Part shown: positions 6,195 to 64,000 of the stretch, piece by piece
Position numbering within the stretch: position 1 is the stretch's first letter
Layout of the letters: every line of letters begins with the position of its first letter
Source of the DNA: an uncultured Anaerolineales bacterium
GTDB lineage: Bacteria > Chloroflexota > Anaerolineae > Anaerolineales > UBA11858
Assembly: GCA_964419495.1 (NCBI GenBank)
Contig: CAYQQX010000003.1
Location: 4,943-68,942 of the forward strand
Length of the DNA stretch: 64,000 nt
Reading direction: 5' to 3'
Program-made: the position numbers and the translations under genes
Notes under the pieces: generated by a model
What the model was told of the DNA's origin: nothing
Databases searched by the model: none
The model's input: only the letters and a program-made list of their open reading frames with translations

Positions 6195-7625
6195 TCAGGC
6201 TTCTTTGGCCCTTTGCTCGATGCGATCCAGTTCTTTTTCAACTTCGGGAGGCAACGGCAAGGGTTTGTGCTCAGCTAGTAATCTATCAACTTTTTCGCGA
6301 GCTTCTTCCAGGATGTCTCTCTTCCCGGAAGCTTCCCATGACTTACGGGGCTCATGTACACCGAGACGAGGGATCAGCCATTCCCCGGACCGCATGCTGA
6401 TGGCTGTGGATTTCTCACCCAGAAAATTTCCGCCCGGGCCAACGCGTTGGATAACGTCATCCAGCCAAGTACTCTCACTTGCTTTGATCCCCCGATGAGC
6501 CTGCTTGTTCATTCGAAACATCTCAGCGTCGATGACCAACTGCTCGAGGCTCAAGATCATTGACCCGCCAAGTAATCCGGCTCCAATCATTAAATCTGGC
6601 CAGGAGAGCATCGGCAGCATGGCGTTCATGGAGCGTTCAAGGCTGGCTTGAATTCCAGGAGCATAGGTATCCGTTCCTCCACCAGACCCTTCAACAGGTA
6701 ATTCGTAGTAGCGCGCCATCTCGATGATAGCGCTTCCGAGCAATCCATTTTCGATTGCACCAGAGCTTAACATCCCCGTGCGCGGATTCATAACCGACTG
6801 AACTGCCGCGTATATAAATGGCGTTCCGGGCGCAGCAGCCTGAACGAGGCACAACATTGATAACACTTCACAGTTGCCCAGAATGGTTACTGAAAGCATG
6901 CTCCCTGGGCCTGTGCCTCCCATCAGGGCCATTGGCATGACAGCAATAGGGATATCCCAACCAACGAGTTCTAAATAAGCATCTGTGTGTTGCTCTTCAA
7001 TGATCAATGGTGATTGCGGACAGACCAAAAAAGAGTAGGGATGATTTTGGCGGATTGTTTTTTTATCGCCAAATACTGCTTGCAAAACTTCCAGCAACCA
7101 GCGACTTTCTTCGGCCGTTGCCGGAGAGTCTTGGATGTGCTTGGAGAAGTTTCTGAACATTTTCCGCCAGTGACTGATTGAATCTGGGATTGTTTCTTGC
7201 CCTTCCCCGGGATCGGCCATTGCCCAATACACACCGATCTCATCCAGTGCATCTGTAATTCGGGTAGATTCCAACCAATCGTTGTAAGTGGTTGGTCGAT
7301 GCTCACCTGTTTTACGATCGATTACAGTAATCCCTTCCCCATCAGGCATCAACGTACAATCCCCGCTGTTCATAGGCAGATCCCAGCCAGGACGGCGTGC
7401 CCCAAGGCTGAATGTCTTTGGTGCCAGCCGCAGCGATTCTTCTACCAAGGCTCGCGGGATACGAACGATTTTTGTGTTTTCATCCACTTCAGCACCGGCA
7501 TCTTTGAGATACTGGCGCCCTTTAGCAGTATCAACTCGTACACCCGTTTCAGCCAGGATCTTCAGCGAACGCTCATGCACTTGCGTTTTTTCATTTTCAG
7601 AGAGAACTTGAAGTAAAGTTTCCAA
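6195..7625 (-). CDS. MttB-superfamily methyltransferase (non-Pyl), divergent clade
   Basis: It is 476 aa with an apparent TTG start. It has the MttB-like N-terminus (ERSLKILAETGVRVD) and contains NPRTG and GPGGNFLGEKST. There is no in-frame TAG. Confidence 0.8.
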   Translation of the reverse strand: METLLQVLSENEKTQVHERSLKILAETGVRVDTAKGRQYLKDAGAEVDENTKIVRIPRALVEESLRLAPKTFSLGARRPGWDLPMNSGDCTLMPDGEGITVIDRKTGEHRPTTYNDWLESTRITDALDEIGVYWAMADPGEGQETIPDSISHWRKMFRNFSKHIQDSPATAEESRWLLEVLQAVFGDKKTIRQNHPYSFLVCPQSPLIIEEQHTDAYLELVGWDIPIAVMPMALMGGTGPGSMLSVTILGNCEVLSMLCLVQAAAPGTPFIYAAVQSVMNPRTGMLSSGAIENGLLGSAIIEMARYYELPVEGSGGGTDTYAPGIQASLERSMNAMLPMLSWPDLMIGAGLLGGSMILSLEQLVIDAEMFRMNKQAHRGIKASESTWLDDVIQRVGPGGNFLGEKSTAISMRSGEWLIPRLGVHEPRKSWEASGKRDILEEAREKVDRLLAEHKPLPLPPEVEKELDRIEQRAKEA

Positions 7626-7638
7626 AGCTTATCCTTAT

Positions 7639-9081
7639 TTATGCGAGTTCTTTTTCTGCGGCTTCAATAATACGTTTCAGTTCAGTTTGCTGATCTTCAG
7701 TCAGCTGTTCGGGATGATGGTTCTTTAGGATCCAATCCGTTTTCTCTCTTGCAACCACAATGGGATCCCGGTAACTGCCATCCTTTTCTGGGACATTAAC
7801 CACTTCCGAATATTCGAATTTATGCATGAATTCGCGAGTATGATGTTGACCAAGGTAGTGCCCTCTTTGGCCCACTTTTTGTATTACATCCAACGCCATT
7901 TTTTCTGGGCTGATATCCACTCCACCTGAATTTACTCGAACGCTGTGATAAAGTTCGGCGTCCAATACAAGGCCTTCCGGGTAGAGCAATGTACTGCCTT
8001 CCAGCAATCCCATTCCACTGCCAGTTTCCGCGCCGCATAAAGCACACAGCAAGGATGACACACCTCCGCCCATGGTTGATTCCCAACCTGGCTTGGATGC
8101 GCCACCCCCGAAAGTGCCTGCTAACGTAGGAACGCCCCACATATGTGCTAGTTCTACGCCAACGGCGTAAATGGTGGCATCATGTGAAATATAAGCCCCT
8201 GTACGTGGATGTGTCAGTCCTGGCATAAAGGAGTGATAGATAGGTGCACCGGGATAGGCCATCTGCATAAGCACCATGGCTGAGACTATTTCTGCATCAC
8301 CTTCTGATATTGTGCCTTCAATGGTAGCAGGAGAAGTTGATCCCGTATTGGGCATGGACATAAAACCAACTGGAATGCCCGCTTCAGCAGCTACCAAAGC
8401 GGCATCCATGCTCTCAGCATCCTGCGCCAATGGCGCAATAGTGCAAATCAGCAATGAAAGCGGTGGGCGTTTGCGCATTGTCTCTTCATCCCCAGCGACC
8501 ACTTTAGCCATTTCCACAGCATAACGGGTTGTAATTTCCTCTACAACCGTTGGAGTTTGAACGTGTTTGAGAGTGTTATTGAAGGAAGCATCTAATTCGT
8601 GAAGAGATGGGCAAATTGGATGGTCCTGGGCACTCACCATCGGCCAATAGAAACTGATCGAGGATAAATAATCGGCAATACGGGCAGATTTGGCCACATC
8701 GTTTTTTAGGGAAGAACGCAGCTCCCCAGTATCATAATCGACTGTTTTTGTTCCGGTACCGTCCGTGGCTTCATATGTTTCCCCTTTTGACAAATCGAGA
8801 TCGAAAGCCTCTATGCGGCCTCCCATGGTGTAGTAGCGCGGTGCATGAGATAGCGCTTCAAGGATCACATCTGGCGACAGCTTGACAATTTGTGTGTCGA
8901 AATCAACATCACCTCCATGCTCGGCGTAGATTTTCAATGCGCGTTCTGATGGGCAATGAAAACCGGTTTTCTCAAGAATTTCAAAGGTATTATTTTTGAA
9001 CTGCTCCAGTTGCTCATCGCTCAGAATACGAACGCGAAATGCAGGTTTGATGGGTTTGATGGGTGGTGTTGTGCTGGTCAT
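7639..9081 (-). CDS. MttB-superfamily methyltransferase (non-Pyl)
   Basis: It contains the blocks SFYWPMVSAQD, NTLKHVQ, MPNTGSTSPAT, DAEIVSAMVLMQMAYPGAP, HPRTG and LLYPE. I prefer the ATG at 9081 (GGAGA 5 nt upstream) over the TTG at 9102 used by the ORF track. It is a close paralogue of 29944..31395. Confidence 0.85.
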   Translation of the reverse strand: MTSTTPPIKPIKPAFRVRILSDEQLEQFKNNTFEILEKTGFHCPSERALKIYAEHGGDVDFDTQIVKLSPDVILEALSHAPRYYTMGGRIEAFDLDLSKGETYEATDGTGTKTVDYDTGELRSSLKNDVAKSARIADYLSSISFYWPMVSAQDHPICPSLHELDASFNNTLKHVQTPTVVEEITTRYAVEMAKVVAGDEETMRKRPPLSLLICTIAPLAQDAESMDAALVAAEAGIPVGFMSMPNTGSTSPATIEGTISEGDAEIVSAMVLMQMAYPGAPIYHSFMPGLTHPRTGAYISHDATIYAVGVELAHMWGVPTLAGTFGGGASKPGWESTMGGGVSSLLCALCGAETGSGMGLLEGSTLLYPEGLVLDAELYHSVRVNSGGVDISPEKMALDVIQKVGQRGHYLGQHHTREFMHKFEYSEVVNVPEKDGSYRDPIVVAREKTDWILKNHHPEQLTEDQQTELKRIIEAAEKELA

Positions 9082-9098
9082 TAATTCTCCATATTGAG

Positions 9099-10031
9099 TC
9101 AATCAGAATATAATTTGAGCAGATCGCCGTAGCTATCCACTCGCCGGTCACGATAGGGGAATGAAAACTGCTTCTTGGTTTCTTCTACATCGGCTAAATC
9201 AACGGGGCATATGACAAGCTCTTCGTGATCTCGGGAAGCTTGTTTCACAATGCTCCCATCCGGGTCAGCGACAAAGCTCTGGCCCCAAAAATTGATCCCG
9301 CTTTCTCCGTTGGGCCCCACACCGGGCGAATTACCATGGGTCTGTGGAAGCGCAATTGACGGGTATTCTTCAAAGCCCACCCGGTTGACTGCGGCCAAAA
9401 AACAAGCATTGGCAACAGCATGACCGCGCTGGACTACTTGCCAGGATTGGTCGTATTCGGAACCCTCCTCAGGTTGAGAATATCCAATTGCAGTAGGGAT
9501 AAAGATGATCTCTGCTCCTTGAAGGCCTAACAACCGGGCAGGTTCCGGATACCACTGGTCCCAACAGATCAAGACTCCAATATCGGCATATCGAGTGTGG
9601 AAAACCTTATATCCCAGGTCACCAGGTGTGAAGTAGAACTTCTCATAATAATGGGGATCATCAGGGATGTGCATCTTGCGATATTTCCCTACGTAGCCCC
9701 CATCGGCATCGATAACCACAGTCGTGTTATGGTAAAGACCCAAGGCTCGCTTTTCGAACAGGCTGGCGATGAGCACTACTTGAAAATCCTTCGCCAATTT
9801 ACTTAAGGTTTGAACTGTGGAGCCATCTTTGGAAACATCTTCTGCCAGATCAAAATGTGTGGAATCCTCTGACTGGCAAAAATAAAGTGATTTGAACAAT
9901 TCTTGCATGCAGATGATCTGAGCGCCTTCAGATGCTGCCTGCTCAATATAATTGAGTGTCTTTTCAAAGTTCGCTTGCACATCTTCGGTGCAAGTCATCT
10001 GGATCAAGCCAATATTGGCAACTCTGCTCAC
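9099..10031 (-). CDS. aguB: N-carbamoylputrescine amidase (carbon-nitrogen hydrolase)
   Basis: It is 310 aa with a GTG start behind AGGAG. The nitrilase-superfamily catalytic Cys lies in VLICWDQWYPE. It sits immediately downstream of agmatine deiminase. Confidence 0.8.
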   Translation of the reverse strand: MSRVANIGLIQMTCTEDVQANFEKTLNYIEQAASEGAQIICMQELFKSLYFCQSEDSTHFDLAEDVSKDGSTVQTLSKLAKDFQVVLIASLFEKRALGLYHNTTVVIDADGGYVGKYRKMHIPDDPHYYEKFYFTPGDLGYKVFHTRYADIGVLICWDQWYPEPARLLGLQGAEIIFIPTAIGYSQPEEGSEYDQSWQVVQRGHAVANACFLAAVNRVGFEEYPSIALPQTHGNSPGVGPNGESGINFWGQSFVADPDGSIVKQASRDHEELVICPVDLADVEETKKQFSFPYRDRRVDSYGDLLKLYSD

Positions 10032-10040
10032 TGCATTCTC

Positions 10041-11138
10041 CTATTCATCAGCCTTTGACAAGGGCTGCTGCTGGGTAACACAATGCATCATGCCGCCCCG
10101 TTCCGCTGTACGCCAAGCTGGAATGCCAACAATTTCGCGAGTTGGGAAGTGCTCTGCGATGATGCTCTTCGCATTAGCATCATTGACATCACCATACACC
10201 GGAACCAGCACAACATTGTTGGCGATATAGAAGTTTGCATAGGTGCCCAACGATAGAATATTCTCGAATGGCGGTCGTGTGCCTTCCGTGAGTGTTGAGT
10301 ACATCTCGTTTTTAGGTTTCGGCAAGCACACCAGTGTCAATGATTTTCCCGATTCGGTCTGGGCATCATGCAGTTCATCTAAGTGTTGTTTCAGAACCGG
10401 ATAAAAATGATTATCCTCATCATCTGTCCAAGAATACAGCACTGTGGCCTCATCAGTGAAACGGGCGTAGCCATCCACATGAAGATCTGTATCACTACCC
10501 ACTAAATCGCAAAAATCACGTGAAGCCCCCGACAGCCAAATAATATTTTCAATGCCAAGATAACCTTTGATTGCGCCTTCAATCTCTTGCTGACTAACCC
10601 CAGGGTTACGATTGGGGTTGATAATCGAGCTACGGGTGGCGATCAGGGTTCCTTGGCCATTGACTTCAATCGCGCCTCCTTCCAGGGTGATGGGCCCTTT
10701 AAACAAGGGTAGTGACGCTGTTTCTGCAACACCGGCGGGTACTAAGCGATCTTTTTTGAAGGGATATCTCTCCCCCCAGCCGTTGAAATTCCATTCTGTG
10801 ACAGCCAACTCACCGCGGTCATTCACCAAAAAGATGGGGCCACAATCTCGCGCCCAGACATCGTCATTGGGGATAACTTGAACATCTATTTTGCTCTCAT
10901 CCAAGCCGTAATACCTCAACTGATGATGCAGGTGTTCTCTACGATGATCATCAGGAACAATGATATGCACAGTTTCGTGCTGATTCAAAACCATGGTCAT
11001 CTCCAGCCAGAGATGCTCCAAGTGTAAGGGTGTATCCTCGTGAGTATCGTTATGCGGCCATATTAGCCAGGTACCCTCATGGGGTTCCCACTCAGCGGGC
11101 ATGGTATAACCCAAGGTTTTGGGAGTCATATTATCCAT
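10041..11138 (-). CDS. aguA: Agmatine deiminase
   Basis: It is 365 aa. MPAEWEPHEGTWLIWPH is at the N-terminus and GGMMHCVTQQQP (catalytic Cys) at the C-terminus. Confidence 0.85.
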   Translation of the reverse strand: MDNMTPKTLGYTMPAEWEPHEGTWLIWPHNDTHEDTPLHLEHLWLEMTMVLNQHETVHIIVPDDHRREHLHHQLRYYGLDESKIDVQVIPNDDVWARDCGPIFLVNDRGELAVTEWNFNGWGERYPFKKDRLVPAGVAETASLPLFKGPITLEGGAIEVNGQGTLIATRSSIINPNRNPGVSQQEIEGAIKGYLGIENIIWLSGASRDFCDLVGSDTDLHVDGYARFTDEATVLYSWTDDEDNHFYPVLKQHLDELHDAQTESGKSLTLVCLPKPKNEMYSTLTEGTRPPFENILSLGTYANFYIANNVVLVPVYGDVNDANAKSIIAEHFPTREIVGIPAWRTAERGGMMHCVTQQQPLSKADE

Positions 11139-11143
11139 AGTTT

Positions 11144-12601
11144 CTATTGCAACTTCTCCGCTTCACGTTCTGCTGCAGCCAATATTCGCTCCAGTTCGGT
11201 AATTACTTCTTCCGAGAGGGGTTCGGGGTGATGGGTTTCATTGATGCGGTTGAATTCTTCCAGGGCAATCTCGCGCGAAGGCCGCGGAGAGTCACTGGCA
11301 TAGATTTCATCAGATATAGGATCGATGACAAAATCGCGGATATGCTTTCGGGTGTGTTTCTGCCGCAAAAAGTGGGATCCCGGTCCCACGGCTTTGATGA
11401 CATCCAAGGCCAGGTCAGCCTCATCGAACTCGACATCCTTAAACCCCTCATAAACTTCCATGCAAATCATGTGGTCTAAAATAATTTGCTCGGGATAAAG
11501 CAACATTGAGCCATCCAGCATGCCCAGGTAGCCGCAAATTTCCCCTCCACTGAGAGGGATGAACATTGCACCAGCCCCAGTCGCGTAGCCGGAATACCAG
11601 CCTATGTCTTTGGCACCACTACTGGTGCCGCCCCCTCCCAAGCTGGGCAATTTCCAGTTATGCCCGATTTGCACCGTCAAAGTTTCAAAGGGGATGCCGG
11701 TGCCGGTCACATAACCACCCGTGCGCGGGTGCATCAGGGACACTTCGATGGAATGAAAGACCGGGGCGCCGGCATATGCTAACTGGATCAGCACCATGGC
11801 GCTGATGACCTCCGCGTCACCGGTAACCAAGGCACCCCAGGGTGTGGCTGGCGCGGTAGTACCCATGGTTGGCATAGCCATAAAGCTGAAGGGGATGCCC
11901 GCTTCGGCGTAAACCAGAGCCGATTCGATTCCGTGTTCGTCGTGGGCCAGCGGGGCAATGCTGCAAATATTGGCACAGATCGGGGGACGCGCCCGTCTCT
12001 CTTCTTCGCTTCCAGTTACTACGGTGGCCATCTCCACAAGATAGGGAGCCAGTTCGGGGAATACCGTGGTTCCGCCACGCACGTGCTTGAGGGTGTTGGT
12101 CAACCCGGCGTGACATTCATGCAACGGAGCGGTGAGCCCGAAATCTTGCGCGCTGACCAGCGGCCAGAAGAAGCTGATCGTCGGCAGCGCGTCGCAGATG
12201 CGGGCCATGCGGGCAACATCATCTTTGCGTGAGCTGCGTTCCTGTCGGTTTTCCAGATCGATGACACGGGTTCCGCAGCCATCGGTACATAAATAGGTAT
12301 TTTTTCCATCCAGCGTTAGATCAAATCTGGGTTCTCGTCCGCCTAAAATAAAGGAACGCGGTGCCGAGGACATGGCTTTCTCAACCAGATCAGGCGCCAA
12401 CCGAACAATTTGAGTATCCCAATCTACATCCGCCCCGTGGTCTGAAAAGATCTTGAGCGCCTTTTCAGAAGGGAAACGAACACCGACATCTTCCAGCAAT
12501 TGCAATGTTCCCGCTTTGAGCATGTCAAGTTGCGATTGCGATAGCACCTTGTGGTGGATCGTTGATGGGTATGCGAGAATATCAGGTGTAATGGATTTCA
12601 T
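11144..12601 (-). CDS. MttB-superfamily methyltransferase (non-Pyl)
   Basis: It is 485 aa and contains SFFWPLVSAQDFG..PLHECHAGLTNTLKHVRGGTTV, PPICANICSIAPL, DAEVISAMVLIQLA, HPRTGGY and HFLRQKHTRKH. It belongs to the same clade as 24611..26077 and 55684..57144. Confidence 0.88.
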   Translation of the reverse strand: MKSITPDILAYPSTIHHKVLSQSQLDMLKAGTLQLLEDVGVRFPSEKALKIFSDHGADVDWDTQIVRLAPDLVEKAMSSAPRSFILGGREPRFDLTLDGKNTYLCTDGCGTRVIDLENRQERSSRKDDVARMARICDALPTISFFWPLVSAQDFGLTAPLHECHAGLTNTLKHVRGGTTVFPELAPYLVEMATVVTGSEEERRARPPICANICSIAPLAHDEHGIESALVYAEAGIPFSFMAMPTMGTTAPATPWGALVTGDAEVISAMVLIQLAYAGAPVFHSIEVSLMHPRTGGYVTGTGIPFETLTVQIGHNWKLPSLGGGGTSSGAKDIGWYSGYATGAGAMFIPLSGGEICGYLGMLDGSMLLYPEQIILDHMICMEVYEGFKDVEFDEADLALDVIKAVGPGSHFLRQKHTRKHIRDFVIDPISDEIYASDSPRPSREIALEEFNRINETHHPEPLSEEVITELERILAAAEREAEKLQ

Positions 12602-12656
12602 TGAGTTTCTCTTTGTTGAAGTGATAGAGTTATTGATCTGCTGCGGGGTATATTCA

Positions 12657-14120
12657 TCAAGAACAGGAGCCTTTTAGCGCTTTGTCTGCTGCAGCAAGAA
12701 TCCGGTCGATCTCCTTCTGGACATCCGCTTGCGGTGGTTCTGGACGATGATTCTCGAGAATCCAAGATACTTTCTCGCGAGCGTATTCCACAGGATGGCG
12801 GTACTTGCTCATTGAATCCAATTGAAGCGTAACACCCCGCACCATGGATGTACGCATATATTTGCGAGTGTGCTTCTGACTCAAAAAATGACCGCCCGGG
12901 CCAACCCGGTCAATGGTCTCTACAGCCAGTGCTTCTGGGTTGATCTCCATGTTCAGCAGGCTGTAGCGAGCCTGATGGTAAAGATCATCATCAAGAATAA
13001 TAGCTTCTGGATACAGAAGGGTGTACGTATCACGCAGACCTATCCCAGTGACGATTTCCGCACCAGCCAGCCCTACCAAAAGGGGATCTGTAGCTACATC
13101 GGCTGCCGATTGCCAACTATCCACTTCAGGGCTTTCAGTACCGAACGCACCACCAAGGGCTGGCATCCCCCAATGGTGGGCCATTTCGACAGGTGCGTAG
13201 CGTACTCTAGAATCCAAGGGGTAGCCAACATAAGCTGCTGTACGCGGATCAGCCCAAGCGTGTAGCAGGGAGTGAAAAACAGGTGCACCAGGATATGCTA
13301 ACTGAAGCAAGACAGCTGCACTAATAATTTCCGCATCTCCTAAAACTAAGGCACCCGCATACGTTGCAGGAGCGGTCGTTCCCATGGTGGGCATGGACAT
13401 GATCACAACCGGGATGCCAGCCTCGGCAAGCACTAAAGCACCCTCGATGGCCTCTTTATCCTGCATCAGGGGAGAGACCGTGCACACGATCAGTGAGATC
13501 GGTGGGCGCTTACGCACTTCTTCCAGGCTGCCTCGCAGCACTGTCGCCATCTCCACCCCATAGCGACAAATCTCTTCACCCATCATGGTCACACTCTGAT
13601 AATGCTTGGTGTTATTCTTCCAGGTGACATCGATCTCGTGGAGCGGGGAGGGTACTCCGCAATCCTGCGCGCTGACCATTGTCCAACTAAAGGCCATGGA
13701 AGACAAATAGTCGTTTATGCGGGCCATCATGCCAACATCGGCTTTTGCCGAAGCACGACGTTCTCCAGTCTTAAAATCTACTACATTGTGGCCACACCCA
13801 TCATTAGTGAAATAGGAAACTCCATCCTGGAGCTGAAGATCAAAATTGGGATTCCGAGCCCCTAACGTGAAATAACGCGGCACAGTGGACATAGCTTTAA
13901 GAACCAGGTCGCGCGGAATTTTCACAATTTGGGTTTCGTGATCCACCTCCACCCCGTTTTCAGCGAAGACAGCTAAAGCTTTATCAGATGGAAATTGGAC
14001 GCCAGTATTCTCAAGGATATTGAGAGTCGCTTCTTGCAAGCGATCCAGCTGTTTACCATCTAAAAAACCCAACTTATACGGGGTCTTGATTGGTTCAATA
14101 GCATTGGGCTCCGATGTCAT
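12657..14120 (-). CDS. MttB-superfamily methyltransferase (non-Pyl)
   Basis: It contains the MttB blocks FSWTMVSAQD, MPTMGTTAPAT, DAEIISAAVLLQLAYPGAPV, DPRTAAY, LLYPE and GPGGHFLSQKHTRKY. I prefer the ATG at 14120 (GGAGA upstream) over the track start at 14147. Confidence 0.85.
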   Translation of the reverse strand: MTSEPNAIEPIKTPYKLGFLDGKQLDRLQEATLNILENTGVQFPSDKALAVFAENGVEVDHETQIVKIPRDLVLKAMSTVPRYFTLGARNPNFDLQLQDGVSYFTNDGCGHNVVDFKTGERRASAKADVGMMARINDYLSSMAFSWTMVSAQDCGVPSPLHEIDVTWKNNTKHYQSVTMMGEEICRYGVEMATVLRGSLEEVRKRPPISLIVCTVSPLMQDKEAIEGALVLAEAGIPVVIMSMPTMGTTAPATYAGALVLGDAEIISAAVLLQLAYPGAPVFHSLLHAWADPRTAAYVGYPLDSRVRYAPVEMAHHWGMPALGGAFGTESPEVDSWQSAADVATDPLLVGLAGAEIVTGIGLRDTYTLLYPEAIILDDDLYHQARYSLLNMEINPEALAVETIDRVGPGGHFLSQKHTRKYMRTSMVRGVTLQLDSMSKYRHPVEYAREKVSWILENHRPEPPQADVQKEIDRILAAADKALKGSCS

Positions 14121-14203
14121 AACTGCATCTCCATTTATAGTCCTCATATCGTGTAAAGAGCACGGTTATTCAGCCATGTAACAAATCTGAGGATATGGAT
14201 ACA

Positions 14204-15148
14204 TTATTCCCCAATTTCTGCAAGAACTTTATAAGGGTCTAAGGCATCGCGCAGCCCGTCACCGATATAATTCACTGAGATGATGGTCAAAAAGATCATT
14301 ATTCCAGGGAAAATAGCCAGCCAGGGATATTGGACGAGATGATCTTGGGCATTATTGAGCATATTGCCCCAGGATGGCGTGGGCGGCATAATCCCAAATC
14401 CTAAGAAAGATAAGCCCGATTCCTCCATAATGGCATATCCAAGCCCTAAAGTAGATTGGACAATTATGGGTCCGAAACCATTTGGCAATAATTCTCTCAG
14501 TATTATTCTCAGGTCAGAAGCTCCTAATGCTCGTGCAGCCTGAATATAATCCATCTCACGCAGCGTTAAGAATACCGCCCGTACCAACCGGGCGACAGTT
14601 GGCCAGGAAAGGACTCCCAGAACCAGTGCGATTGTCATTTTGCTGTTGCTTTGAACAAAGGGCAGATCGGCCTCACGCAGGATTGCGGCTAACAAGATCA
14701 TGAACAGTAAAGCTGGAAGAGCAAGTGTTGCATCAATAATCCGCATCAGGATATTGTCTATCCACCCGCCATAATAACCGGCAACAGTACCAATGGGAAT
14801 GCCAATACCCAGTGTTATTGCAACGACCATTAAGCCGACAGTCATTGAAACCCGCCCGCCATAAAATGTACGGGTCATTAGATCTCTCCCCAATCCATCG
14901 GTACCAAAGGGATGGGCTAGTGAAGGTGATTGAAATCTATTTTTAATATCTGATTTTTCAGGATCATATGGGGATAGAGAGGCGAAAACTGCCGTTAAAA
15001 TCATAAGGATCATTACGAATGCCCCAACCATCGCGCCTGGGTGACGGCGGAAACGCTTCCAGGCCAGGGACATCATCGTCTCTGGAGGTCGGATATTATT
15101 CTTTATCTCGCCATTTTGTTCGAGCGTTTTTTCGTTGTTTTTCATCAT
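14204..15148 (-). CDS. ABC transporter permease (DppC/OppC-like)
   Basis: It is 314 aa and multi-pass hydrophobic. It has the BPD-transporter EAA-type region (YIQAARALGASDLRII). Confidence 0.85.
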   Translation of the reverse strand: MMKNNEKTLEQNGEIKNNIRPPETMMSLAWKRFRRHPGAMVGAFVMILMILTAVFASLSPYDPEKSDIKNRFQSPSLAHPFGTDGLGRDLMTRTFYGGRVSMTVGLMVVAITLGIGIPIGTVAGYYGGWIDNILMRIIDATLALPALLFMILLAAILREADLPFVQSNSKMTIALVLGVLSWPTVARLVRAVFLTLREMDYIQAARALGASDLRIILRELLPNGFGPIIVQSTLGLGYAIMEESGLSFLGFGIMPPTPSWGNMLNNAQDHLVQYPWLAIFPGIMIFLTIISVNYIGDGLRDALDPYKVLAEIGE

Positions 15149-15166
15149 CTTTGTTGCTTCTCTCGA

Positions 15167-16207: not shown

Positions 16208-16283
16208 ACACACTCCTATAACTAGGGGGGAGGGTCAATAATGATCCTCCCCCCAATTTAACGAACAATGGTAAATCTATCTT

Positions 16284-18038: not shown

Positions 18039-18091
18039 CTGTAGCCTCCTTTTGGTATTAATGAACTATAAAAATTGGTTTCTCACAAAAT

Positions 18092-18739: not shown

Positions 18740-18952
18740 AAAATCCTCCTTGCTAATCGATGCGAACAACTTTTGTTTTTAATCTTCGCTCTCAAATTTC
18801 CAATAAGACCTCCTCAGATATCTACACTTTTCCACTTGTGATCTTCTTTGATGCCACCACAATATTTAACTCATGTTACACACACGTAGCGAGGTTTCCC
18901 TGAGCTTGCGTAACATCAATATTTAAATTAGAAAAAGACCATAATAAAATAA

Positions 18953-18986
18953 AACCCAGGTTGAGCAATTCACTCTGCACTGGGTT
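18953..18986 (-). terminator. Possible intrinsic terminator of the Lrp gene
   Basis: The 7-bp stem aacccag/ctgggtt is followed on the - strand by ttattttatt. The loop is large (20 nt) and contains the Lrp stop codon. Confidence 0.3.
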
Positions 18987-19449: not shown

Positions 19450-19735
19450 AGGCCCCAACCCAACAACCCAATCTGATTAGATTATTCTTTCGTCTTCCAG
19501 AATACCCGAATGTTTCCAAAAAGTCAATACTTAGCACTAATACTTTCCAAATTCGACACAACTATTGGACAACTCGGAATATAATGTATCACGCATGCTA
19601 TAATGCGGCTAATATGGAAACAATCAATCGATATATACGTCTTAGGATATCGATTAATGTGTTTCTCGAACGCGCCGCCAATCAAGGCAAGAGCAGGTTT
19701 GGAATTTTCGTAAACAAATTCATGGAGGTTGAAGG

Positions 19736-51660: not shown

Positions 51661-51748
51661 TCCTTCAAATCCGCGAACGAAAAACCATTTATTTGGACAC
51701 AAAATATCTATCGAAAAAAATGGAAAATGAAAAAGGAGAGCGATTTCC

Positions 51749-52738: not shown

Positions 52739-52866
52739 TTCTGAAAAAGGTAATCGTCATGCGCAGATCGAACAAAAGTAGCAAATAACTTCTATTCGGA
52801 AACCAAGAATAAAGGAAAAATTTCTTGGTTTCCTGGCTTCCAAATTAAATTAGTGAGAGGTATTGT

Positions 52867-54204: not shown

Positions 54205-54205
54205 T

Positions 54206-55675
54206 ATGTCGAAAATCTTGAATTACATCAACAATGAATGGGTAGAACCGAAAGTTAGCGAGTACGCCGAGGTGATCAATCCGGCCACAGGAGAGGTGAT
54301 CGCCAAAACGCCCTTGTGTGGTAAAAGTGAAGTGGATGCAGCCACAATGGCAGCCTCAGAGGCATTTCCAGCGTGGCGTGAGACCCCGGTAAACGATCGC
54401 ATCAAGTATCTGTTTAAATTGCGGGATTTACTCATCGCCAACCATGATGAGATCGGCCGCATTATCACCGAGGAATGCGGCAAGACCTTCGGTGAGGCCA
54501 AAGCCGAAATGGTGCGCGCCATCGAGAATGTGGAAGTTGCCTGCGGCATGCCAATGATGATGAAGGGTGAAATCGCAGAGGATATCGCCCCAGGCATCGA
54601 TGAGATCATGCTGCGCCAACCTTTGGGCGTGTGTACCACGATCGCGCCATTCAACTTCCCGGGCATGATCACCTTTTGGTACCTACCCTATGCGCTGGCA
54701 ACGGGTAATACCTATATCGTCAAACCCTCAGAACGCGTCTCAATGACTATGCAGTTCATCTTCGAATTGATCGAGCAGGTTGGTTTCCCTCCGGGCGTGG
54801 TCAATATGGTGCACGGCTCGAAAGATGCCGTCAATGCCATTCTTGATCACCCTGATATTCGCGCCATCACATTTGTCGGCTCGACAAATGTGGCCAAATA
54901 CGTCTACCGCCGCGCAGCCGAGAACGGCAAACGCGTCCAGGCGCAAGGTGGGGCGAAAAACCCGGTTATCATCATGCCCGATGCCGAAATGGATATGGCA
55001 ACCCAAATTGTTGCCGATTCAGCCTTTGGGTGCGCTGGTCAGCGCTGCTTGGCAGTATCCCTGGCCGTGACGGTTGGAGAAGCACGCAATACCTTCAACG
55101 AAATGATTTGCGACGCGGCATCTAACCGTGTTGTCGGTAACGGCCTCGATGCAGATGTGCAAATGGGTCCCGTGATTAACCAGGCCAGCAAAGCGAACAT
55201 CGAAAAACTTATCGGACTGGGAACCACGGAAGGGGCCACCGCGTTGGTAGATGGACGCGGCACAACTATCGAAGGTTATGAAGGGGGTACGTTTGTCCGT
55301 CCAACAGTTTTATCTGAAGTGCAACCCAACAGTGAAATTTGGAAAACCGAGATCTTTGGTCCGGTGTTGAGCATGATGCATGTCAAAACCATCGAGGAAG
55401 CCATCGAATTGGCCAATAGTCATATTTATGGCAACCAGGCCAGTCTGTTTACTTCCAGTGGGGCCGCGGCGCGCAAGTTCCGTTATGAAGTGGATGCAGG
55501 CAACGTGGGCATTAACATCGGCGTCGCCGCCCCCATGGCATTCTTCCCCTTTAGCGGATGGAAAGACAGCTTCTTTGGAACTCTCCACGGGCAAGGACAA
55601 CATGCCGTCGAGTTTTTCACTCAAACCAAGGTCGTCATTGAGCGTTGGCCCAAGGAATGGTCACGAAAATTCTAG
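54206..55675 (+). CDS. mmsA: Methylmalonate/malonate-semialdehyde dehydrogenase (CoA-acylating ALDH)
   Basis: It is 489 aa and contains the ALDH catalytic blocks [10 protein letters not shown] and EIFGPVL. The C-terminal [13 protein letters not shown] tail is typical of the MmsA/IolA subgroup. Confidence 0.75.
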
Positions 55676-55683
55676 GAGAATAA

Positions 55684-57144
55684 ATGTACTCTGAGACCCC
55701 GGATATCACCTCGATCTCATCCCATCACAAAATCCAGATTCTGAGAGATTCGGAACTGGAGACATTGAAGAACGGCACCATGCAGCTCTTGTCGGAAACG
55801 GGTGTCTATTTCCCCAGCCAAATAGCCTTGTCGATCTTCGCCGATCACGGGGCCAACGTGGATTGGGATACGAAGATCGTCCGCATTCAGCCCGATTTAG
55901 TCAAAAAGGCCATGGCGACCGCCCCACGCAGCTTTGTGTTGGGCGGCCGAGAAGAACGTTTCGACCTGATACTCGATGGTCGTAACTCTTACCTTTGCAC
56001 CGATGGATGCGGGGTCCATGTCATTGATCCAGAAACCCGAGAAAAACGTGCTTCCCGAAAATCGGATGTGGCCATGATGGCGCGCATCAGTGACGCCATT
56101 CCTATGCTCAGCTTCTTCTGGCCATTGGTGAGTGCCCAGGATTTCGGCAAAACTGCACCACTGCACGAATGCCATGCGGGCCTGACCAACACCTTGAAAC
56201 ACGTACGCGGGGGAACAACCGTTCACCCTGAACTGGCCCCCGCGATTGTAGAAATGGCCACCGTTGTCTCGGGAAGTGACGCGGAGAGACGCCGGCGACC
56301 ACCAATTTGTGCCAATATTTGCACAATAGCACCTATGGCTCAAGATGGCCACGGCATCGAAACCGCGTTGATTTATGCAGCCGCAGGAATTCCTGTTAGT
56401 TTTATGGCTATGCCCAACATGGGCTCAACTGCGCCAGCTTCAGTACTTGGTGCGCTGGTTATGGGTGATGCAGAGTCAGTCAGCGCAATGGTGCTGATGC
56501 AGTTGGCGAACCCTGGTGCACCTGTCTTCCATTCGATTATCACCTCGCTGATGGATCCGCGTACCGGTGGATACATCGGGGATATCCCCTTGCCAGTCTC
56601 GTTGATCGCTGTGCAGTTAGCCCATGCCTGGAACGTTCCCAGCTTAGGCGGCGGGTCGTTCAGCAGTGACGCACCCGATGTCGGCTGGCAGTCGGCGTTC
56701 GAAGCAGGTTTTGGCTCAGCAAAGATACCCCTGGCTGGTGGTGAGATTTGCGGCTATATGGGATTGCTGAATTCTTCGATGACTATCTACCCTGAACAGA
56801 TCATTCTTGATGCGGAGATCGCCAGGAATGTTTATGATACATACAAAGAATTCGAATTCAAAGATTTCGATGCTTCATTGGATGTGATCAAAGCTGTAGG
56901 CCCAGGCGGACATTATTTGAGAGAAAAACACACTCGGGTGTACATGCGAGATTTTCACTACTCACCTATCTTCCGCCAATTGGATGCCGAAGGCCACCTG
57001 CGCGAGCCGCGCGATGTAGCATACGATGAATTCAAAAGAATCTATGAAACTCATCAGCCTGAACCGCTGCCTGATGAGGCCATAAAAGAAATGGACAACA
57101 TCCTGGCAGCGGCAGACAGAACGGCAGCAAAATTAGCGGACTAA
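55684..57144 (+). CDS. MttB-superfamily methyltransferase (non-Pyl)
   Basis: It is 486 aa and belongs to the same clade as 11144 and 24611 (SFFWPLVSAQDFG, LHECHAGLTNTLKHVRGGTTV, PPICANICTIAPM, DPRTGGY). Confidence 0.88.
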   Translation: MYSETPDITSISSHHKIQILRDSELETLKNGTMQLLSETGVYFPSQIALSIFADHGANVDWDTKIVRIQPDLVKKAMATAPRSFVLGGREERFDLILDGRNSYLCTDGCGVHVIDPETREKRASRKSDVAMMARISDAIPMLSFFWPLVSAQDFGKTAPLHECHAGLTNTLKHVRGGTTVHPELAPAIVEMATVVSGSDAERRRRPPICANICTIAPMAQDGHGIETALIYAAAGIPVSFMAMPNMGSTAPASVLGALVMGDAESVSAMVLMQLANPGAPVFHSIITSLMDPRTGGYIGDIPLPVSLIAVQLAHAWNVPSLGGGSFSSDAPDVGWQSAFEAGFGSAKIPLAGGEICGYMGLLNSSMTIYPEQIILDAEIARNVYDTYKEFEFKDFDASLDVIKAVGPGGHYLREKHTRVYMRDFHYSPIFRQLDAEGHLREPRDVAYDEFKRIYETHQPEPLPDEAIKEMDNILAAADRTAAKLAD

Positions 57145-57164: not shown

Positions 57165-59627
57165 GTGGAGAAACCGAATAGCAAATTACCACCACAAGCT
57201 CGAGTCGTGATTATTGGCGGCGGTGTCATCGGCTGCAGTACCGCCTATCATCTGGCAAAACTGGGCTGGAAAGACATCGTGCTCCTGGAGCGCGCCCAGC
57301 TTACCGCCGGCACCACCTGGCATGCCGCTGGGCTAATTGAGGCGGGTGGGTTCATGGACGCCACCTCAATCGAGATGGCTGATTACACTTTGAAGCTTTA
57401 CAGTTCCCTGGAAGCCGAAACCGGATTGGCAACCGGCTACAAAGATGTGGGCATGATTACTCTGGCATCTACTCCAGAACGATTGGAGGAAATGCGACGA
57501 ATTTCTGCAAAAAACCGCTTCCATAATGTTGAGGTGGAGGAAATCTCCCCGAAGAAGATCAAGGAAATCTGGCCGCTGGCGTATACCGACGACCTCCTGG
57601 CCGGGTTTTATTCACCTGGGGATGGGCGCGTCAATCCCATCGATGTCACCATGGCCTTAGCCAAAGGCGCTCGCATGAGCGGCGTCCAAATCTTCGAAGA
57701 GACGGCTGTCACTGGTTTCAGCATCAAAAACCAGATGGTAACCGGAGTGATTACCGAAAAGGGCGAGATCCAGGCCGAGTACGTAGTCAACTGCGCCGGC
57801 ATGTGGGCCGGAGAGATAGGGAAGCTGGCCGGCGTCAATGTGCCGTTGCAACCCATGGAGCACTACTACCTGATCACAGAGCCAATTGACGGCATTGACC
57901 CCAAATTGCCCGTTTTGGTGGATTCCGATAAGTACGCTTATTATCGAGAAGAAGTGGGGGGTGTGTTGTTCGGCCTGTTCGAGCCTGAGGCTGCTCCCTG
58001 GGCCATGGACGGCATCCCCAAGAACTTCACCTTTGGGGAAATCAACCCCGATTGGGATCGCATGATGCCTTACATCGAGGAGGCCATGAAACGCATCCCG
58101 GTGCTTGAAAATGCAGGTATCCACAAATTCTTCTGCGGCCCGGAGAGCTTCACGCCAGACAATGGCTTCATGATGGGGTTGGCACCCGAGTTGGATAACT
58201 TCTATGTGGCTGCGGGTTTCAACTCCCTGGGAATTCTCATGGGCGGAGGCGCTGGCAAAGTGATGGCTCAATGGATCGTCGATGGCGTCTCGGATGTCGA
58301 CATCACCGAGATCGACATTGCCCGCATGCTGCCATTCCAGAATACCCCCAAATATCGGCAAGACAGGGGTGTCGAGATACTCGGGTACATGTTCAATATC
58401 GGTTATCCCAATAAACAGTTAAAAACCGCCCGCAATGTTCGCCAATCTCCTTTCCATCAAAGATTGGCCGAAGCAGGGGCGTATTTTGGCGTCTATGCCG
58501 GCATGGAATATCCGGATTGGTTTGCACCCAAAGGCGTTGACCCCAAAGTCGAATACTCCTGGGGGCGGCAGAACTGGTTCGAATACAGCGCCGCAGAGCA
58601 TCGCGCCACGCGCGAAAACGTCACCATGATGGATTATTCAGTCATGGGCAAAATCCTGGTCCAGGGTCGCGACGCCGAAAAATATCTCAACCGCATCTGC
58701 GCCAATAACGTCGCCGTGCCTGTCGGGCGTTGTGTCTATACTCAATGGTGCAACGAAACCGGCACCATCGAAGCCGATCTAACAGTTACTCGCCTGGCAG
58801 AAGACCTGTTCCTCATTCTCAGCGGAGATGCCACCATCCCCGCCGTGATGGCCTGGCTGCGAAGACACATTCCCTCCGATGCCCATGCTATCATAACGAA
58901 TATCTCTTCAGCATACAGTGTGCTCAACATCCAGGGTCCGAAATCTCGTGAATTTTTGAGCACCGTTACCCATGCCGATATGTCCAATGAAGCCTTTCCC
59001 TTCCTTACTTCCCAAGAGATCGACATTGGCTATGCCCTGGTAAGAGCCATCCGCATCACGTACGTCGGAGAATTGGGCTGGGAGTTGTATATCCCATCCG
59101 AATTCTCTTTGCACGTCTTCGATACCCTTGTAGAAGCAGGAAAAGATTTTGAACTGAAACACATCGGGCTGCAGGCCTTGAACACGCTGCGCCTAGAAAA
59201 AGCCTATCGCGACTATGGTGGCGATATCGACAACACCGATACGCCCCTGGAAGTTGGCTTGGGCTTCTTTGTTGATTTCGACAAACCTAGCGGATTCATC
59301 GGTCGAGATGCGTTACTAAAACTTAAAGAATCCGGCTACCGCTATCGCATGCCGCAGTTCCTGCTTGAGGATCCTGAACCGATGATGTATTACGGCGAGA
59401 TCATCTACCGGGATGGGGTACCTGTGGGGAATATCATGTCCGGAGGCTTCGGGCACACCTTAGGCGCGTCTGTCGCTGTTGGACCGGTGGAAGGCGAAGA
59501 TGAACCTGTGACGGTCGATTTCATCCAGAGCGGCGCCTATGAAATTGACATTGCGGGTGTGCGCTACCCGGCCAAAGCATCCCTAAGGCCCATGTATGAC
59601 CCCAAGCTCCTTCGAGTACGATGTTAA
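57165..59627 (+). CDS. Dimethylglycine oxidase/dehydrogenase-like flavoprotein (FAD + GcvT domains)
   Basis: It is 820 aa with a GTG start 20 nt after the MttB stop. It contains VVIIGGGVIGCSTAYHL, AGTTWHAAGL and TYVGELGWELYIP. Confidence 0.85.
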   Translation: MEKPNSKLPPQARVVIIGGGVIGCSTAYHLAKLGWKDIVLLERAQLTAGTTWHAAGLIEAGGFMDATSIEMADYTLKLYSSLEAETGLATGYKDVGMITLASTPERLEEMRRISAKNRFHNVEVEEISPKKIKEIWPLAYTDDLLAGFYSPGDGRVNPIDVTMALAKGARMSGVQIFEETAVTGFSIKNQMVTGVITEKGEIQAEYVVNCAGMWAGEIGKLAGVNVPLQPMEHYYLITEPIDGIDPKLPVLVDSDKYAYYREEVGGVLFGLFEPEAAPWAMDGIPKNFTFGEINPDWDRMMPYIEEAMKRIPVLENAGIHKFFCGPESFTPDNGFMMGLAPELDNFYVAAGFNSLGILMGGGAGKVMAQWIVDGVSDVDITEIDIARMLPFQNTPKYRQDRGVEILGYMFNIGYPNKQLKTARNVRQSPFHQRLAEAGAYFGVYAGMEYPDWFAPKGVDPKVEYSWGRQNWFEYSAAEHRATRENVTMMDYSVMGKILVQGRDAEKYLNRICANNVAVPVGRCVYTQWCNETGTIEADLTVTRLAEDLFLILSGDATIPAVMAWLRRHIPSDAHAIITNISSAYSVLNIQGPKSREFLSTVTHADMSNEAFPFLTSQEIDIGYALVRAIRITYVGELGWELYIPSEFSLHVFDTLVEAGKDFELKHIGLQALNTLRLEKAYRDYGGDIDNTDTPLEVGLGFFVDFDKPSGFIGRDALLKLKESGYRYRMPQFLLEDPEPMMYYGEIIYRDGVPVGNIMSGGFGHTLGASVAVGPVEGEDEPVTVDFIQSGAYEIDIAGVRYPAKASLRPMYDPKLLRVRC

Positions 59628-63013: not shown

Positions 63014-63022
63014 AAAGGTGTG

Positions 63023-63085
63023 AGACTTCCGAAGTTTTATAAGTATCTTGTTGGCCCCACAGGCATTTTAAGACTTCGGAAGTCT
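63023..63085. terminator. Long-loop hairpin between convergent genes (possible terminator)
   Basis: The 13-bp inverted repeat is agacttccgaagt (63023-63035) / acttcggaagtct (63073-63085). On the - strand it is followed by a T5 run (63013-63017). Confidence 0.35.
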
Positions 63086-63194
63086 AAAATGATACTGATT
63101 TCCAGGGGAATCTTATTATCTGGTGTCTTGGTCCAGCACTTTCAGGAATCTGATCAGTTTTCTGCCGTTGTCTACCGAGACGATTTTATTAACC

Positions 63195-64000
63195 TCAACC
63201 TCCCAATGCAAAATTAGCCCCTACATATCCGCGCAAAATTCGTTCGAGCTCTGCTTCGATTTGCGCAGGCAAGCGAGGCGGCTGGTGAGAGGCCAGGATC
63301 TCCCTCGCTTTCTGCCTGCTCTTCTCGGCAACTTGCACTCGGTCTACTACCCAGGTTTCATAGGCATCTTTGTTCAACAATTCTGGCTGCCAGTGTCGCT
63401 TGTATTCTCTCCGAGTATGATTTTCTCTTAGGAAATTTCCTCGTGGGATATTGGCCTTGATCAGGGCAATTTCTTCATCTAGATCATGAAGAGTAATGCC
63501 CTGCATCATTCGCCGTAATCCGGCAATCAATTCGTTGTCCATCACCATCTGGGAAAATGATATCGCTGCCCCTGCATCAACCGCACCAACTCCATAGATG
63601 ATGCTCGCGCCCTCAACAAGTAGTGGAAATGCTGTGACGGCTTTTTCAAATCCAGCCTGCACATCCACTTCTTTGGCATCGGTGGAGAGTCCGCCACACA
63701 TAGAGGGGATGCCATAGAAATTGGCCATAATCGCCGCGCCGCTGTTGATCATACCGCGCTCTGGGGCACCAAGGGGTAATATCCCGGTACGCATATCGAG
63801 AACGCTGGAAACACTCCCATATAAAAGAGGGGTACCTGGGAATAGAATTTGTAAAACAACCACCCACGCCAGGATTTCCAGATTGATGACAACCAATTCG
63901 CCTAACAAAGTCGCCGGGGCAGAGGCACCGCCCATGGCCATGCTCAGCAATGTAATAGGCACACCATGATGAGCCCAGCGCAGCATACACTGAATATTCT
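63195..64000 (-). CDS. MttB-superfamily methyltransferase (non-Pyl), divergent clade, C-terminal part (runs off the right edge)
   Basis: The frame stays open past the track's Met (upstream residues NIQC...). SMAMGGASAPATLLGE, DMRTG and RGNFLRENHTRRE align with MttB blocks. It resembles 6195..7625 more than the other paralogues. Confidence 0.75.
   Translation of the reverse strand, partial: NIQCMLRWAHHGVPITLLSMAMGGASAPATLLGELVVINLEILAWVVVLQILFPGTPLLYGSVSSVLDMRTGILPLGAPERGMINSGAAIMANFYGIPSMCGGLSTDAKEVDVQAGFEKAVTAFPLLVEGASIIYGVGAVDAGAAISFSQMVMDNELIAGLRRMMQGITLHDLDEEIALIKANIPRGNFLRENHTRREYKRHWQPELLNKDAYETWVVDRVQVAEKSRQKAREILASHQPPRLPAQIEAELERILRGYVGANFALGG

Follow-up and report, generated by a model that had tools for sequence, protein, structure and literature searches.

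Why does a single stretch of DNA from an uncultured Anaerolineae (Chloroflexota) bacterium encode nine members of the MttB methyltransferase superfamily, and do these represent redundant copies of one enzyme or a set of enzymes with distinct substrates? The stretch, referred to here as the window, comprises 64,000 nucleotides and corresponds to positions 5116-69115 of the 89.7-kb Joint Genome Institute (JGI) metagenome contig Ga0118724_1000149, of which a further 10 kb on each side of the window was examined. MttB homologues that lack pyrrolysine (Pyl) are among the genes most often mis-annotated as 'trimethylamine methyltransferase' in metagenomes, and to our knowledge only five of their substrates are known. 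The analysis points to nine functional, Pyl-free methyltransferases, predicted to serve as substrate-specific first components (MT1) in corrinoid methyl transfer and belonging to six orthologous groups (orthogroups) of ancient origin, which probably serve N-demethylation through one shared corrinoid protein with about six specificities between them. As far as the residues of the substrate pocket can tell, these specificities are not of the glycine betaine, carnitine or gamma-butyrobetaine type.

The first point to settle is whether the genes are genuine and intact. Among the 45 substantial genes in the window, exactly nine belong to the MttB superfamily (PF06253/COG5598; E 4e-47 to 3e-70, 160-237 bits, at a PF06253 gathering score of 25), and the match runs end to end in eight of the proteins and over the visible C-terminal 267 residues in the ninth. 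The sole NCBIfam model that the nine match is TIGR02369, the Pyl-MttB equivalog, and with 253-382 bits every one of them stays under its curated cutoff of 525 bits. The eight complete proteins measure 476-496 residues and contain zero internal stops. The ninth gene, which is cut by the window edge, is whole on the parent contig, where it encodes 474 uninterrupted residues. A tblastn search across the window with MttB, MtgB and the paralogues themselves returned these nine regions only, with no fragments or pseudogenes. At the position of Pyl334 in MttB, none of the nine carries an in-frame UAG codon, and G, S or A stands there instead; in the truncated ninth protein it is a Ser that lies inside the window. 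The preliminary description, which had listed nine non-Pyl paralogues and had seen no in-frame TAG in the visible part of the ninth, is thereby borne out, and its second statement now extends to the full-length gene.

Structural comparison supports the same assignment. Specifically, the AlphaFold2 model of the protein encoded at 46991, the sole paralogue modelled, reaches a predicted local distance difference test (pLDDT) score of 73.7 and a predicted template-modelling (pTM) score of 0.80. It aligns with the structures of MtgB (9YCE, 2QNE), MttB (7XCL) and a Sinorhizobium meliloti homologue (4YYC) at template-modelling (TM) scores of 0.75-0.78 and E values of 1e-24 to 5e-29, and it fits the MtgB and MttB structures equally well. 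According to this model, the protein adopts the TIM barrel seen in MttB and MtgB and carries a C-terminal extension. What the analysis shows directly is the homology and intactness of the genes, the fold, the orthogroups, the divergence of the pockets and the synteny.

How different from one another are the nine? Named here by their first coordinate, they sort into six orthogroups. One genome per GTDB species was scanned with the 46991 protein, which yielded 66 related loci, nearly all of them from metagenome-assembled genomes (MAGs) of Anaerolineae/Anaerolineales, Chloroflexota; the best relatives are ~80% identical to the 46991 protein and include 'Candidatus Desulfolinea nitratireducens' and MAGs from 750 m in the Black Sea. 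Clustering by average linkage placed the 169 further full-length homologues from these loci in eight orthogroups with a mean within-group identity of 60-73% (single linkage at 52% identity merged four of them), and six of the eight occur in the window, X8 and X9 being the two that do not. The six orthogroups are ancient.

Clade A is represented three times, by 11144 (11144-12601, minus strand, 485 residues), 24611 (24611-26077, plus strand, 488 residues, 3' of a GntR/FCD regulator) and 55684 (55684-57144, plus strand, 486 residues). Pairwise BLASTP identities within it are 61-74%, with 11144 being 61-65% identical to the other two. Clade B consists of 7639 (7639-9081, minus strand, 480 residues in the JGI call, with an open reading frame that could begin at 9102) and 29944 (29944-31395, plus strand, 483 residues), which are 75% identical. 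The singletons 12657 (12657-14120, minus strand, with an open reading frame that could begin at 14147) and 46991 (46991-48451, minus strand, 486 residues, PF06253 E 2.8e-70) share ~45% identity with A, with B and with each other; their orthogroups, M12657 and M46991, have 32 orthologues in 31 loci and 41 orthologues in 39 loci, respectively. The remaining two genes are 6195 (6195-7625, minus strand, 476 residues, TTG start, PF06253 E 3.7e-68; orthogroup M6195) and 63195 (63195-64000 within the window, minus strand; orthogroup M63195). 6195 is ~30% identical to every other copy, and its orthologues in other Anaerolineae loci share 47-64% identity.

Two aspects of the preliminary description, which had grouped the genes by eye, look different in this light. 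Clades A and B and the two singletons were recovered by the BLASTP identities, whereas the supposed 'divergent pair' of 6195 and 63195 dissolves: the two share only ~30% identity, are no closer to each other than either is to the other seven, and form separate lineages both in the clustering and in neighbour-joining (NJ) trees, which were built with 100 bootstraps and few references, MtpB and MthB being left out. In these trees, A, B, 12657 and 46991 form a superclade with 98-100% bootstrap support; 6195 lies nearer to this seven-member group (100% in the first tree, unresolved in the second), and 63195 stands apart. The motif blocks that had been quoted for all nine are real, but they are the signature of the superclade and none of them is present in 6195 or 63195; they are likewise missing from MttB and MtgB, except for GHFLxxKHTR, which the Desulfitobacterium hafniense MtgB also matches.

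The question of substrate can be approached through the characterized members of the family. In MtgB, the glycine betaine enzyme, the trimethylammonium group is held by Y97 and F356 and the carboxylate by R312 and H348; exchange of the latter two in the R312L and H348E variants leaves essentially no activity, and R312 is reported to be conserved in MtcB, MtpB, MthB and MtyB (PMC13080624). Reference sequences for Methanosarcina barkeri MttB (7XCL), D. hafniense MtgB (2QNE, 9YCE) and S. meliloti 4YYC were rebuilt from PDB alignments, and those of Eubacterium limosum MtyB and MtcB were machine-read from Figure S6 of PMC8604678 with a few letters dropped; Y97, R312, H348 and F356 were all reproduced in the MtgB sequence used. 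Like MtgB, MtyB and MtcB have Arg at the R312 position, Leu at the Pyl334 position and His at the H348 position. Neither R312 nor H348 is found in any of the nine window proteins. At the R312 position, seven of them have Leu, whereas 6195 has Glu and 63195 has Met; the H348 position is taken by G, S, A, T, E, I or Y, and the F356 position holds Ser in seven, Gly in 63195 and Tyr in 12657, the only aromatic residue there. The latter is a feature of the whole M12657 group, in whose orthologues Thr is invariant at the H348 position and the F356 position is either Tyr or Phe. The residue opposite Y97 is non-aromatic in all nine, in a column that shifts by one or two residues between alignments and that a fast MAFFT alignment misplaced. 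The R312 column, in turn, is stable in every alignment made.

These substitutions are far from random with respect to the orthogroups. When 454 alignment columns were ranked by being conserved within orthogroups and different between them, R312, F356 and H348 came 3rd, 4th and 8th, and by our own estimate, chance alone would bring three out of four columns named beforehand into the top eight with a probability of ~2e-5. The X8 group, which is absent from the window, shows yet another combination, with Asn at the R312 position, Tyr at the H348 position and Ala at the F356 position. At the same time, the framework that faces the corrinoid is kept, with Met249 (MttB numbering) invariant and Gly110 nearly so in all groups. 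Altered pockets on a retained framework are the pattern to be expected of active enzymes whose substrate has changed. Among the 30 most group-specific columns, the clade-A copies differ at 5-9, the clade-B pair at 13 and members of different clades at 22-23. The three clade-A copies of the window carry the same residues at five pocket columns, which implies that about six specificities are a fairer estimate than nine. The distinct specificities that the preliminary description had proposed are therefore supported by the group-specific pocket positions, with their number nearer to six than to nine.

This evidence bears directly on the simplest alternative, namely that the nine genes are many copies of an MtgB-type or other already characterized betaine enzyme, kept for dosage or differential regulation. 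All nine are non-Pyl MttB homologues, glycine betaine is the commonest environmental substrate, flavoenzymes resembling dimethylglycine dehydrogenase (DMGDH) in the neighborhood recall the route from glycine betaine via dimethylglycine to sarcosine, and the shared pocket residues of clade A would suit true redundancy. However, the residues without which MtgB is essentially inactive are missing throughout, the aromatic residue at the F356 position is confined to 12657, and it is precisely at the pocket positions that the groups diverge. Identity to the characterized enzymes is only 17-30% (24-29% to MtgB, 17-27% to MtyB and MtcB). The NJ tree, moreover, unites MtgB, 4YYC, MtyB and MtcB in a clade with 96% support and separates all nine from it by a split (87%) that places them with Pyl-MttB. 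The nine thus do not collapse into a single characterized substrate clade, none of them qualifies as an MtgB-type glycine betaine enzyme, and the idea of redundant betaine enzymes is largely refuted and retains very little probability. The lack of the betaine signature is not peculiar to this locus. A HMMER search of the whole sequence library with the 46991 protein detected 6457 related clusters at 50% identity, 1106 of them at E 1e-30; across 126 diverse full-length relatives in a 144-sequence alignment, used for R312 only, Arg occupies the R312 position in 13, and lack of the signature is therefore common in the uncharacterized bulk of the family.

The position of the nine on the Pyl-MttB side of the tree raises a second alternative. 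Some copies, above all the 63195 type, might demethylate trimethylamine (TMA) or another non-quaternary methylamine without Pyl, or might be repurposed relics of Pyl enzymes. In MttB, Tyr364 and Gly110-Thr111 activate pyrrolysine (PMC9842639). Gly110 is present in each of the nine, Thr111 only in the clade-B pair and 63195; Tyr364 is kept in 63195 only (and in the X8 group), such that 63195 combines Tyr364, Gly110-Thr111 and Met249. In the absence of Pyl, Tyr364 and Gly110-Thr111 cannot define membership in the Pyl-MttB group. A Pyl system is, furthermore, encoded in some Chloroflexi (PMC5424206). Against this, all but one of the 22 orthologues of the 63195 type have Ser in place of Pyl334, and the proposed MttB mechanism requires the pyrroline imine for TMA activation. 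In addition, no non-Pyl member is known to act on TMA, MtgB is inactive on it, and strain DCMF, which possesses 81 paralogues, does not grow on it. Overall, TMA demethylation without Pyl appears improbable here.

If the nine are demethylases with changed substrates, what do they work with? Four of them belong to one operon, which occupies positions 1-19458 of the window and runs leftwards from 19458 on the minus strand, with gaps of 230 nt after the regulator at its head and 5-102 nt further downstream. The order begins with an AsnC/Lrp-family regulator (18970-19458), a corrinoid (B12-binding) protein (18092-18739) and an Opp/Dpp-type ATP-binding cassette (ABC) importer (14204-18038, composed of an SBP_bac_5 binding protein at 16284-18038 and two permeases). 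These are followed by MttB 12657, MttB 11144, an agmatine-deiminase-like gene (10041-11138), an N-carbamoylputrescine-amidase-like gene (9099-10031), MttB 7639 and, as the last MttB gene, MttB 6195. The distal part (326-6123) encodes a DAO-family FAD oxidoreductase (4843), a class-III aminotransferase (3497), an aldehyde:ferredoxin oxidoreductase (AFOR, 1598) and a saccharopine-dehydrogenase-like protein (326), and two ATPase genes of the importer complete the operon just left of the window. The corrinoid protein combines B12-binding_2 and B12-binding domains with a DLHEIG (DxHxxG) motif and scores 218 bits with the MtgC model, 212 bits with pyl_corrinoid and E 1.8e-50 against the MttC of 7XCN. 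It is the only such gene in the window, and it is presumed to act as the common methyl acceptor of the MttB paralogues.

The arrangement is inherited across Anaerolineae, since the gene maps of related loci share its order. AsnC heads the array in 29 related loci, and a corrinoid gene adjoins MttB arrays in 21. In its fuller form, the operon reads AsnC, M63195, M46991, corrinoid protein, binding protein, permeases, M12657, M_X8, M_A, optionally deiminase and amidase, M_B, M6195, saccharopine-dehydrogenase-like protein and aminotransferase. In the present genome, M63195 and M46991 have moved elsewhere in the window, and M_X8, which most related MAGs carry after the 12657 type and before clade A (e.g. 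L016, L019, L028, L048 and L052), is missing, with a gap of only 55 nt (12602-12656) between the 12657 and 11144 genes. More generally, the make-up of the array varies between genomes in the manner of cassettes, with M_A, M_B, M6195 and X9 coming and going. The distal gene order is the same in L071 and L072, and in L048 and L052 the saccharopine-dehydrogenase-like gene is followed by an aminotransferase. The deiminase/amidase insertion also occurs in L048, and the deiminase-like gene in L020 and L059. The preliminary description had placed each copy in a different enzyme context, a statement that does not hold for the four copies that share one operon, one transporter and one corrinoid protein. 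Scans for regulatory elements added little: no Rfam model, those of cobalamin riboswitches included, matched the window at gathering score, tRNA genes, including one for tRNA(Pyl), were not detected, and a promoter/terminator scan of the operon was uninformative, with fewer sites than in shuffled sequence.

The available data favor a model in which the importer brings in N-methylated, most probably quaternary, amines, and each MttB paralogue binds its own substrate in the TIM-barrel pocket as an MT1. One methyl group would pass to Co(I) of the sole corrinoid protein, an MT2 encoded elsewhere would move it from the corrinoid to tetrahydrofolate (THF), and a RamA-type activase, also encoded elsewhere, would repair oxidized cobalt. 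Four of the paralogues would be co-transcribed with the corrinoid protein and the importer. Subsequently, DMGDH-like FAD/folate enzymes and DAO flavoenzymes could strip the remaining methyl groups oxidatively, yielding methylene-THF or formaldehyde, before aminotransferases together with aldehyde dehydrogenases or AFOR consume the carbon skeleton. Within this model, we infer that the proteins are catalytically active, that they share the corrinoid protein, that the pathway runs towards catabolism and in which order its steps follow.

The operon also invites another interpretation, according to which the co-operonic paralogues act stepwise on one poly-N-methylated compound, or on a small family of compounds, each taking a different methylation state or nitrogen. 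Such a chain would fit the conserved Anaerolineae operon, in which four to seven MttB types are co-transcribed with a single binding protein, a single pair of permeases and a single corrinoid protein, and the deiminase-like, amidase-like and GntE-like genes in the array hint at a single guanidino or polyamine skeleton. Yet the cassette-like variation of the array, exemplified by the missing M_X8, suits independent units better than an obligatory chain. Furthermore, the characterized non-Pyl members take only the first methyl group of a quaternary amine (PMC8604678, PMC13080624), and DMGDH-like and DAO enzymes are at hand for the later ones. Stepwise action on one compound is accordingly judged rather unlikely, and demethylation of several amines through a shared corrinoid protein remains the preferred reading.

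Several observations nevertheless weigh against this preferred reading. Four to seven co-transcribed paralogues with a single importer fit poorly with the situation in E. limosum, where one inducible paralogue serves each substrate. Some redundancy among the three clade-A copies is likely, because of their identical residues at the five pocket columns. On the technical side, the Y97 column is ambiguous between alignments and the H348 column is shifted by one in the 144-sequence alignment, while the placement outside the betaine clade comes from an NJ tree with few references in which MtyB and MtcB were machine-read and MtpB and MthB do not appear. Finally, the window and its 10-kb flanks on the contig encode neither an MT2 (pterin-binding, MtrH-type or zinc MtaA-type) nor a RamA-type activase. 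A URO-D-like gene (31619-32647, plus strand) was considered as MT2 and rejected: it matches MtaA/CmuA in its C-terminal half only (64 bits versus a cutoff of 235), contains just two Cys residues and lacks the HxC zinc motif, and never appears in the related loci. The missing MT2 does not exclude a three-component system, because E. limosum also encodes its MT2 elsewhere. Large unassigned open reading frames beside the related arrays were also inspected as candidates for RamA or MT2, and they turned out to be Arg-rich antisense artefacts, a secreted repeat protein, an IorA-like oxidoreductase and a binding protein.

Outside the operon, the other five MttB copies adjoin or sit near DMGDH-like flavoenzymes, DAO oxidoreductases, aminotransferases and aldehyde dehydrogenases. 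Directly upstream of MttB 46991 lies a DMGDH-like gene (copy 2, 48467-50947, minus strand), and downstream of it (42148-46994, minus strand) follow two DAO genes (45630 and 44234), a Cys-rich open reading frame and an amine-oxidase-like flavoprotein (42148); the order DMGDH-like, MttB, DAO, DAO, amine oxidase is kept in L003 and L008. MttB 55684 is preceded on the plus strand (51154-55675) by an AsnC regulator, an ornithine cyclodeaminase (OCD)-family protein, an omega-aminotransferase and a CoA-acylating methylmalonate/malonate-semialdehyde dehydrogenase (MMSDH), and it is followed directly by another DMGDH-like gene (copy 3, 57165-59627, plus strand). This module recurs, whole or in part, in L003, L004, L008, L023 and L026. 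Among its genes at 51749-55675, the dehydrogenase scores 560 bits with the MMSDH model (cutoff 448) and the omega-aminotransferase exceeds the cutoff of PRK06062; speculatively, the combination of OCD, omega-aminotransferase and MMSDH would suit a skeleton of the beta-alanine type. The third module comprises a DMGDH-like gene (copy 1, 19736-22159, plus strand, with DAO, FAO_M and GCV_T domains), a major facilitator superfamily (MFS) transporter, a GntR regulator, MttB 24611, a saccharopine-dehydrogenase-like gene, an APH-type kinase fused to a class-III aminotransferase, and MttB 29944. The two genes between the MttB copies span 26138-29947 (plus strand), and the fusion gene (27587-29947; PRK06148, 730 bits) overlaps with its stop the start of MttB 29944. 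We take its architecture to resemble hydroxylysine kinase/phospho-lyase pairs as well.

Taken together, these neighborhoods speak to a last alternative, in which the MttB proteins would work in the biosynthetic direction, methylating amines from methyl-THF to form osmolytes, or would have a non-catalytic role. Corrinoid methyl transfer is reversible in principle, and the Ruegeria pomeroyi MtgD works both ways. The setting, however, is one of import and catabolism (ABC importer, MFS transporter, DMGDH-like and DAO enzymes, aminotransferases, aldehyde dehydrogenases and AFOR), the catalytic framework is conserved, and there is no precedent for biosynthetic enzymes in the MttB family. Synthesis in place of breakdown is thus highly improbable.

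Some features of the neighborhoods deserve mention in their own right. DMGDH-like copies 2 and 3 are 63% identical and each shares 33-34% identity with copy 1. Three such enzymes are unusual for an organism that is probably an anaerobe, as suggested by the AFOR in the operon and by relatives from sulfidic Black Sea water and sediment; genes for electron-transfer flavoprotein were not found in the window. The Cys-rich open reading frame between DAO 44234 and the flavoprotein at 42148 (43983-44231, minus strand, 82 residues, Cys_rich_CWC, a JGI call) is kept in the contig of a second sample. Downstream of MttB 29944, at 35323-41612 on the plus strand, three tandem sulfatase paralogues (57-75% identical; best NCBIfam models arylsulfatase and choline-sulfatase, both below cutoff) are followed by a type-B carboxylesterase, and these enzymes might release amines from sulfate or carboxyl esters. 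Immediately beyond MttB 63195, on the contig to the right of the window (L069 12162-17780), an 1872-residue protein in which Aminotran_1_2 is the sole Pfam match is followed by an AMP-binding enzyme; the large protein may be a biosynthetic megaenzyme.

Which amines, then, might the system use? The aminotransferase at 3497-4813 (minus strand) scores 562 bits with the NCBIfam model of GntE, the guanitoxin-biosynthesis transaminase, and thus above its cutoff of 525. The deiminase-like and amidase-like proteins stay below theirs (AguA model 254 bits, cutoff 382; AguB model 309 bits, cutoff 410). The presence of all three in one operon is a hint of a guanidino-amine substrate. A bolder and tentative extension would have the operon constitute a pathway for methylated amines that no known MttB-family enzyme uses, either non-acidic ones (e.g. 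guanidino or polyamine quaternary amines) or amines phosphorylated by the adjacent kinase. The enzymes responsible would be four to seven co-expressed paralogues of a lineage that lies on the Pyl-MttB side of the family. In them, the anion-binding Arg/His pair found in all characterized betaine enzymes would have given way to hydrophobic or small residues, and the deiminase-like and amidase-like proteins would process the skeleton. We give this proposal only a small chance of being right. If it were true, corrinoid-dependent demethylation would extend beyond betaines, and a major source of nitrogen and one-carbon units for abundant sediment Chloroflexi would have been named.

The broader relevance stems from the host, whose class, the Anaerolineae, abounds in anoxic marine sediments and water columns. 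The same proteins occur on long contigs, with mostly the same neighbors, in at least five JGI samples (3300009127, 3300009374, 3300009332, 3300009431 and 3300013119), which suggests one abundant population that was sampled repeatedly. The findings bear on the recycling of osmolyte-derived methyl groups and nitrogen without the release of TMA or methane precursors. They also provide a defined and ordered set of targets for the discovery of new methylated-amine substrates, comprising the MttB genes together with a single corrinoid protein and a single binding protein.

How does this locus compare to known systems? The closest model is E. limosum, in which 42 non-Pyl MttB paralogues occur with one MtqC, one MtqA and one RamQ (PMC8604678). 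Both organisms combine many non-Pyl MttB proteins in one genome, presumably with one amine each, with a single corrinoid protein and an MT2 and activase encoded elsewhere. In both, a kinase gene adjoins one of the paralogues, as MthK does MthB in E. limosum, where choline is phosphorylated before demethylation (PMC12155760). The demethylation 'hub' that the preliminary description had put forward is therefore not a new idea but the published model for E. limosum (PMC8604678). The differences lie in the phylum (Firmicutes there, Chloroflexota here), in the position of the nine outside the MtyB/MtcB clade and without R312 and H348, and in the gene organization, given that the E. limosum genes are separately induced whereas up to seven types here share an operon with an ABC importer. 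The metabolic context also differs, with the Wood-Ljungdahl pathway of an acetogen on one side and DMGDH-like flavoenzymes as neighbors on the other.

Other characterized systems share individual elements. The D. hafniense MtgB/MtgC/MtgA system (2QNE, 9YCE) shares the superfamily, the fold (TM 0.75-0.77) and a corrinoid protein to whose MtgC models the one described here is closest; it differs in its sequence (24-29% identity), in its R312, H348 and F356, of which the proteins here retain none but for the Tyr of 12657 at the last position, and in its MtgA-type pterin-binding gene, which this cluster does not contain. M. barkeri MttB/MttC (7XCL, 7XCN) is the founding member, on whose side of the tree the nine fall and whose MttC resembles the corrinoid protein. 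Of its residues, Met249 is invariant and Gly110 nearly so in the groups described here, and the 63195 type adds Thr111 and Tyr364. Here, in contrast, the host is bacterial, no in-frame TAG is present, G, S or A takes the place of Pyl334, and no coenzyme M methylase is found. In the aerobic marine R. pomeroyi, an MttB-family MT1 takes the first methyl group and folate-linked flavoenzymes take the later ones, from dimethylglycine and sarcosine, with the genes co-located (PMC12478193). The same logic of MT1 followed by DMGDH, with co-located genes, applies to the present locus, whose host is probably an anaerobe. The R. pomeroyi MtgC, however, is CmuA-like and doubles as a split methionine synthase, and the substrate is glycine betaine, the binding residues for which are missing here. 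A comparably extreme expansion in an anaerobe is known from 'Candidatus Formimonas warabiya' strain DCMF, with 81 full-length MttB-superfamily genes (PMC8163858) and mostly uncharacterized substrates. This strain, likened here by description only, is an acetogen-like member of the Peptococcaceae, from which a conserved operon that joins several MttB genes to an ABC importer has not been described.

Anaerolineae MAGs with genes annotated as mttB had been noted before (PMC11264602), and a literature search found no description of the conserved multi-MttB operon, of its orthogroups or of their place outside the betaine clade. As such, the locus represents a known kind of gene expansion, that is, the E. 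limosum model in a new phylum, rather than a new kind of system. To this model it adds a conserved, presumably co-transcribed Anaerolineae array of six to eight MttB orthogroups, whose pockets differ exactly at the known substrate-binding positions, and nine copies that lie outside the characterized betaine clade.

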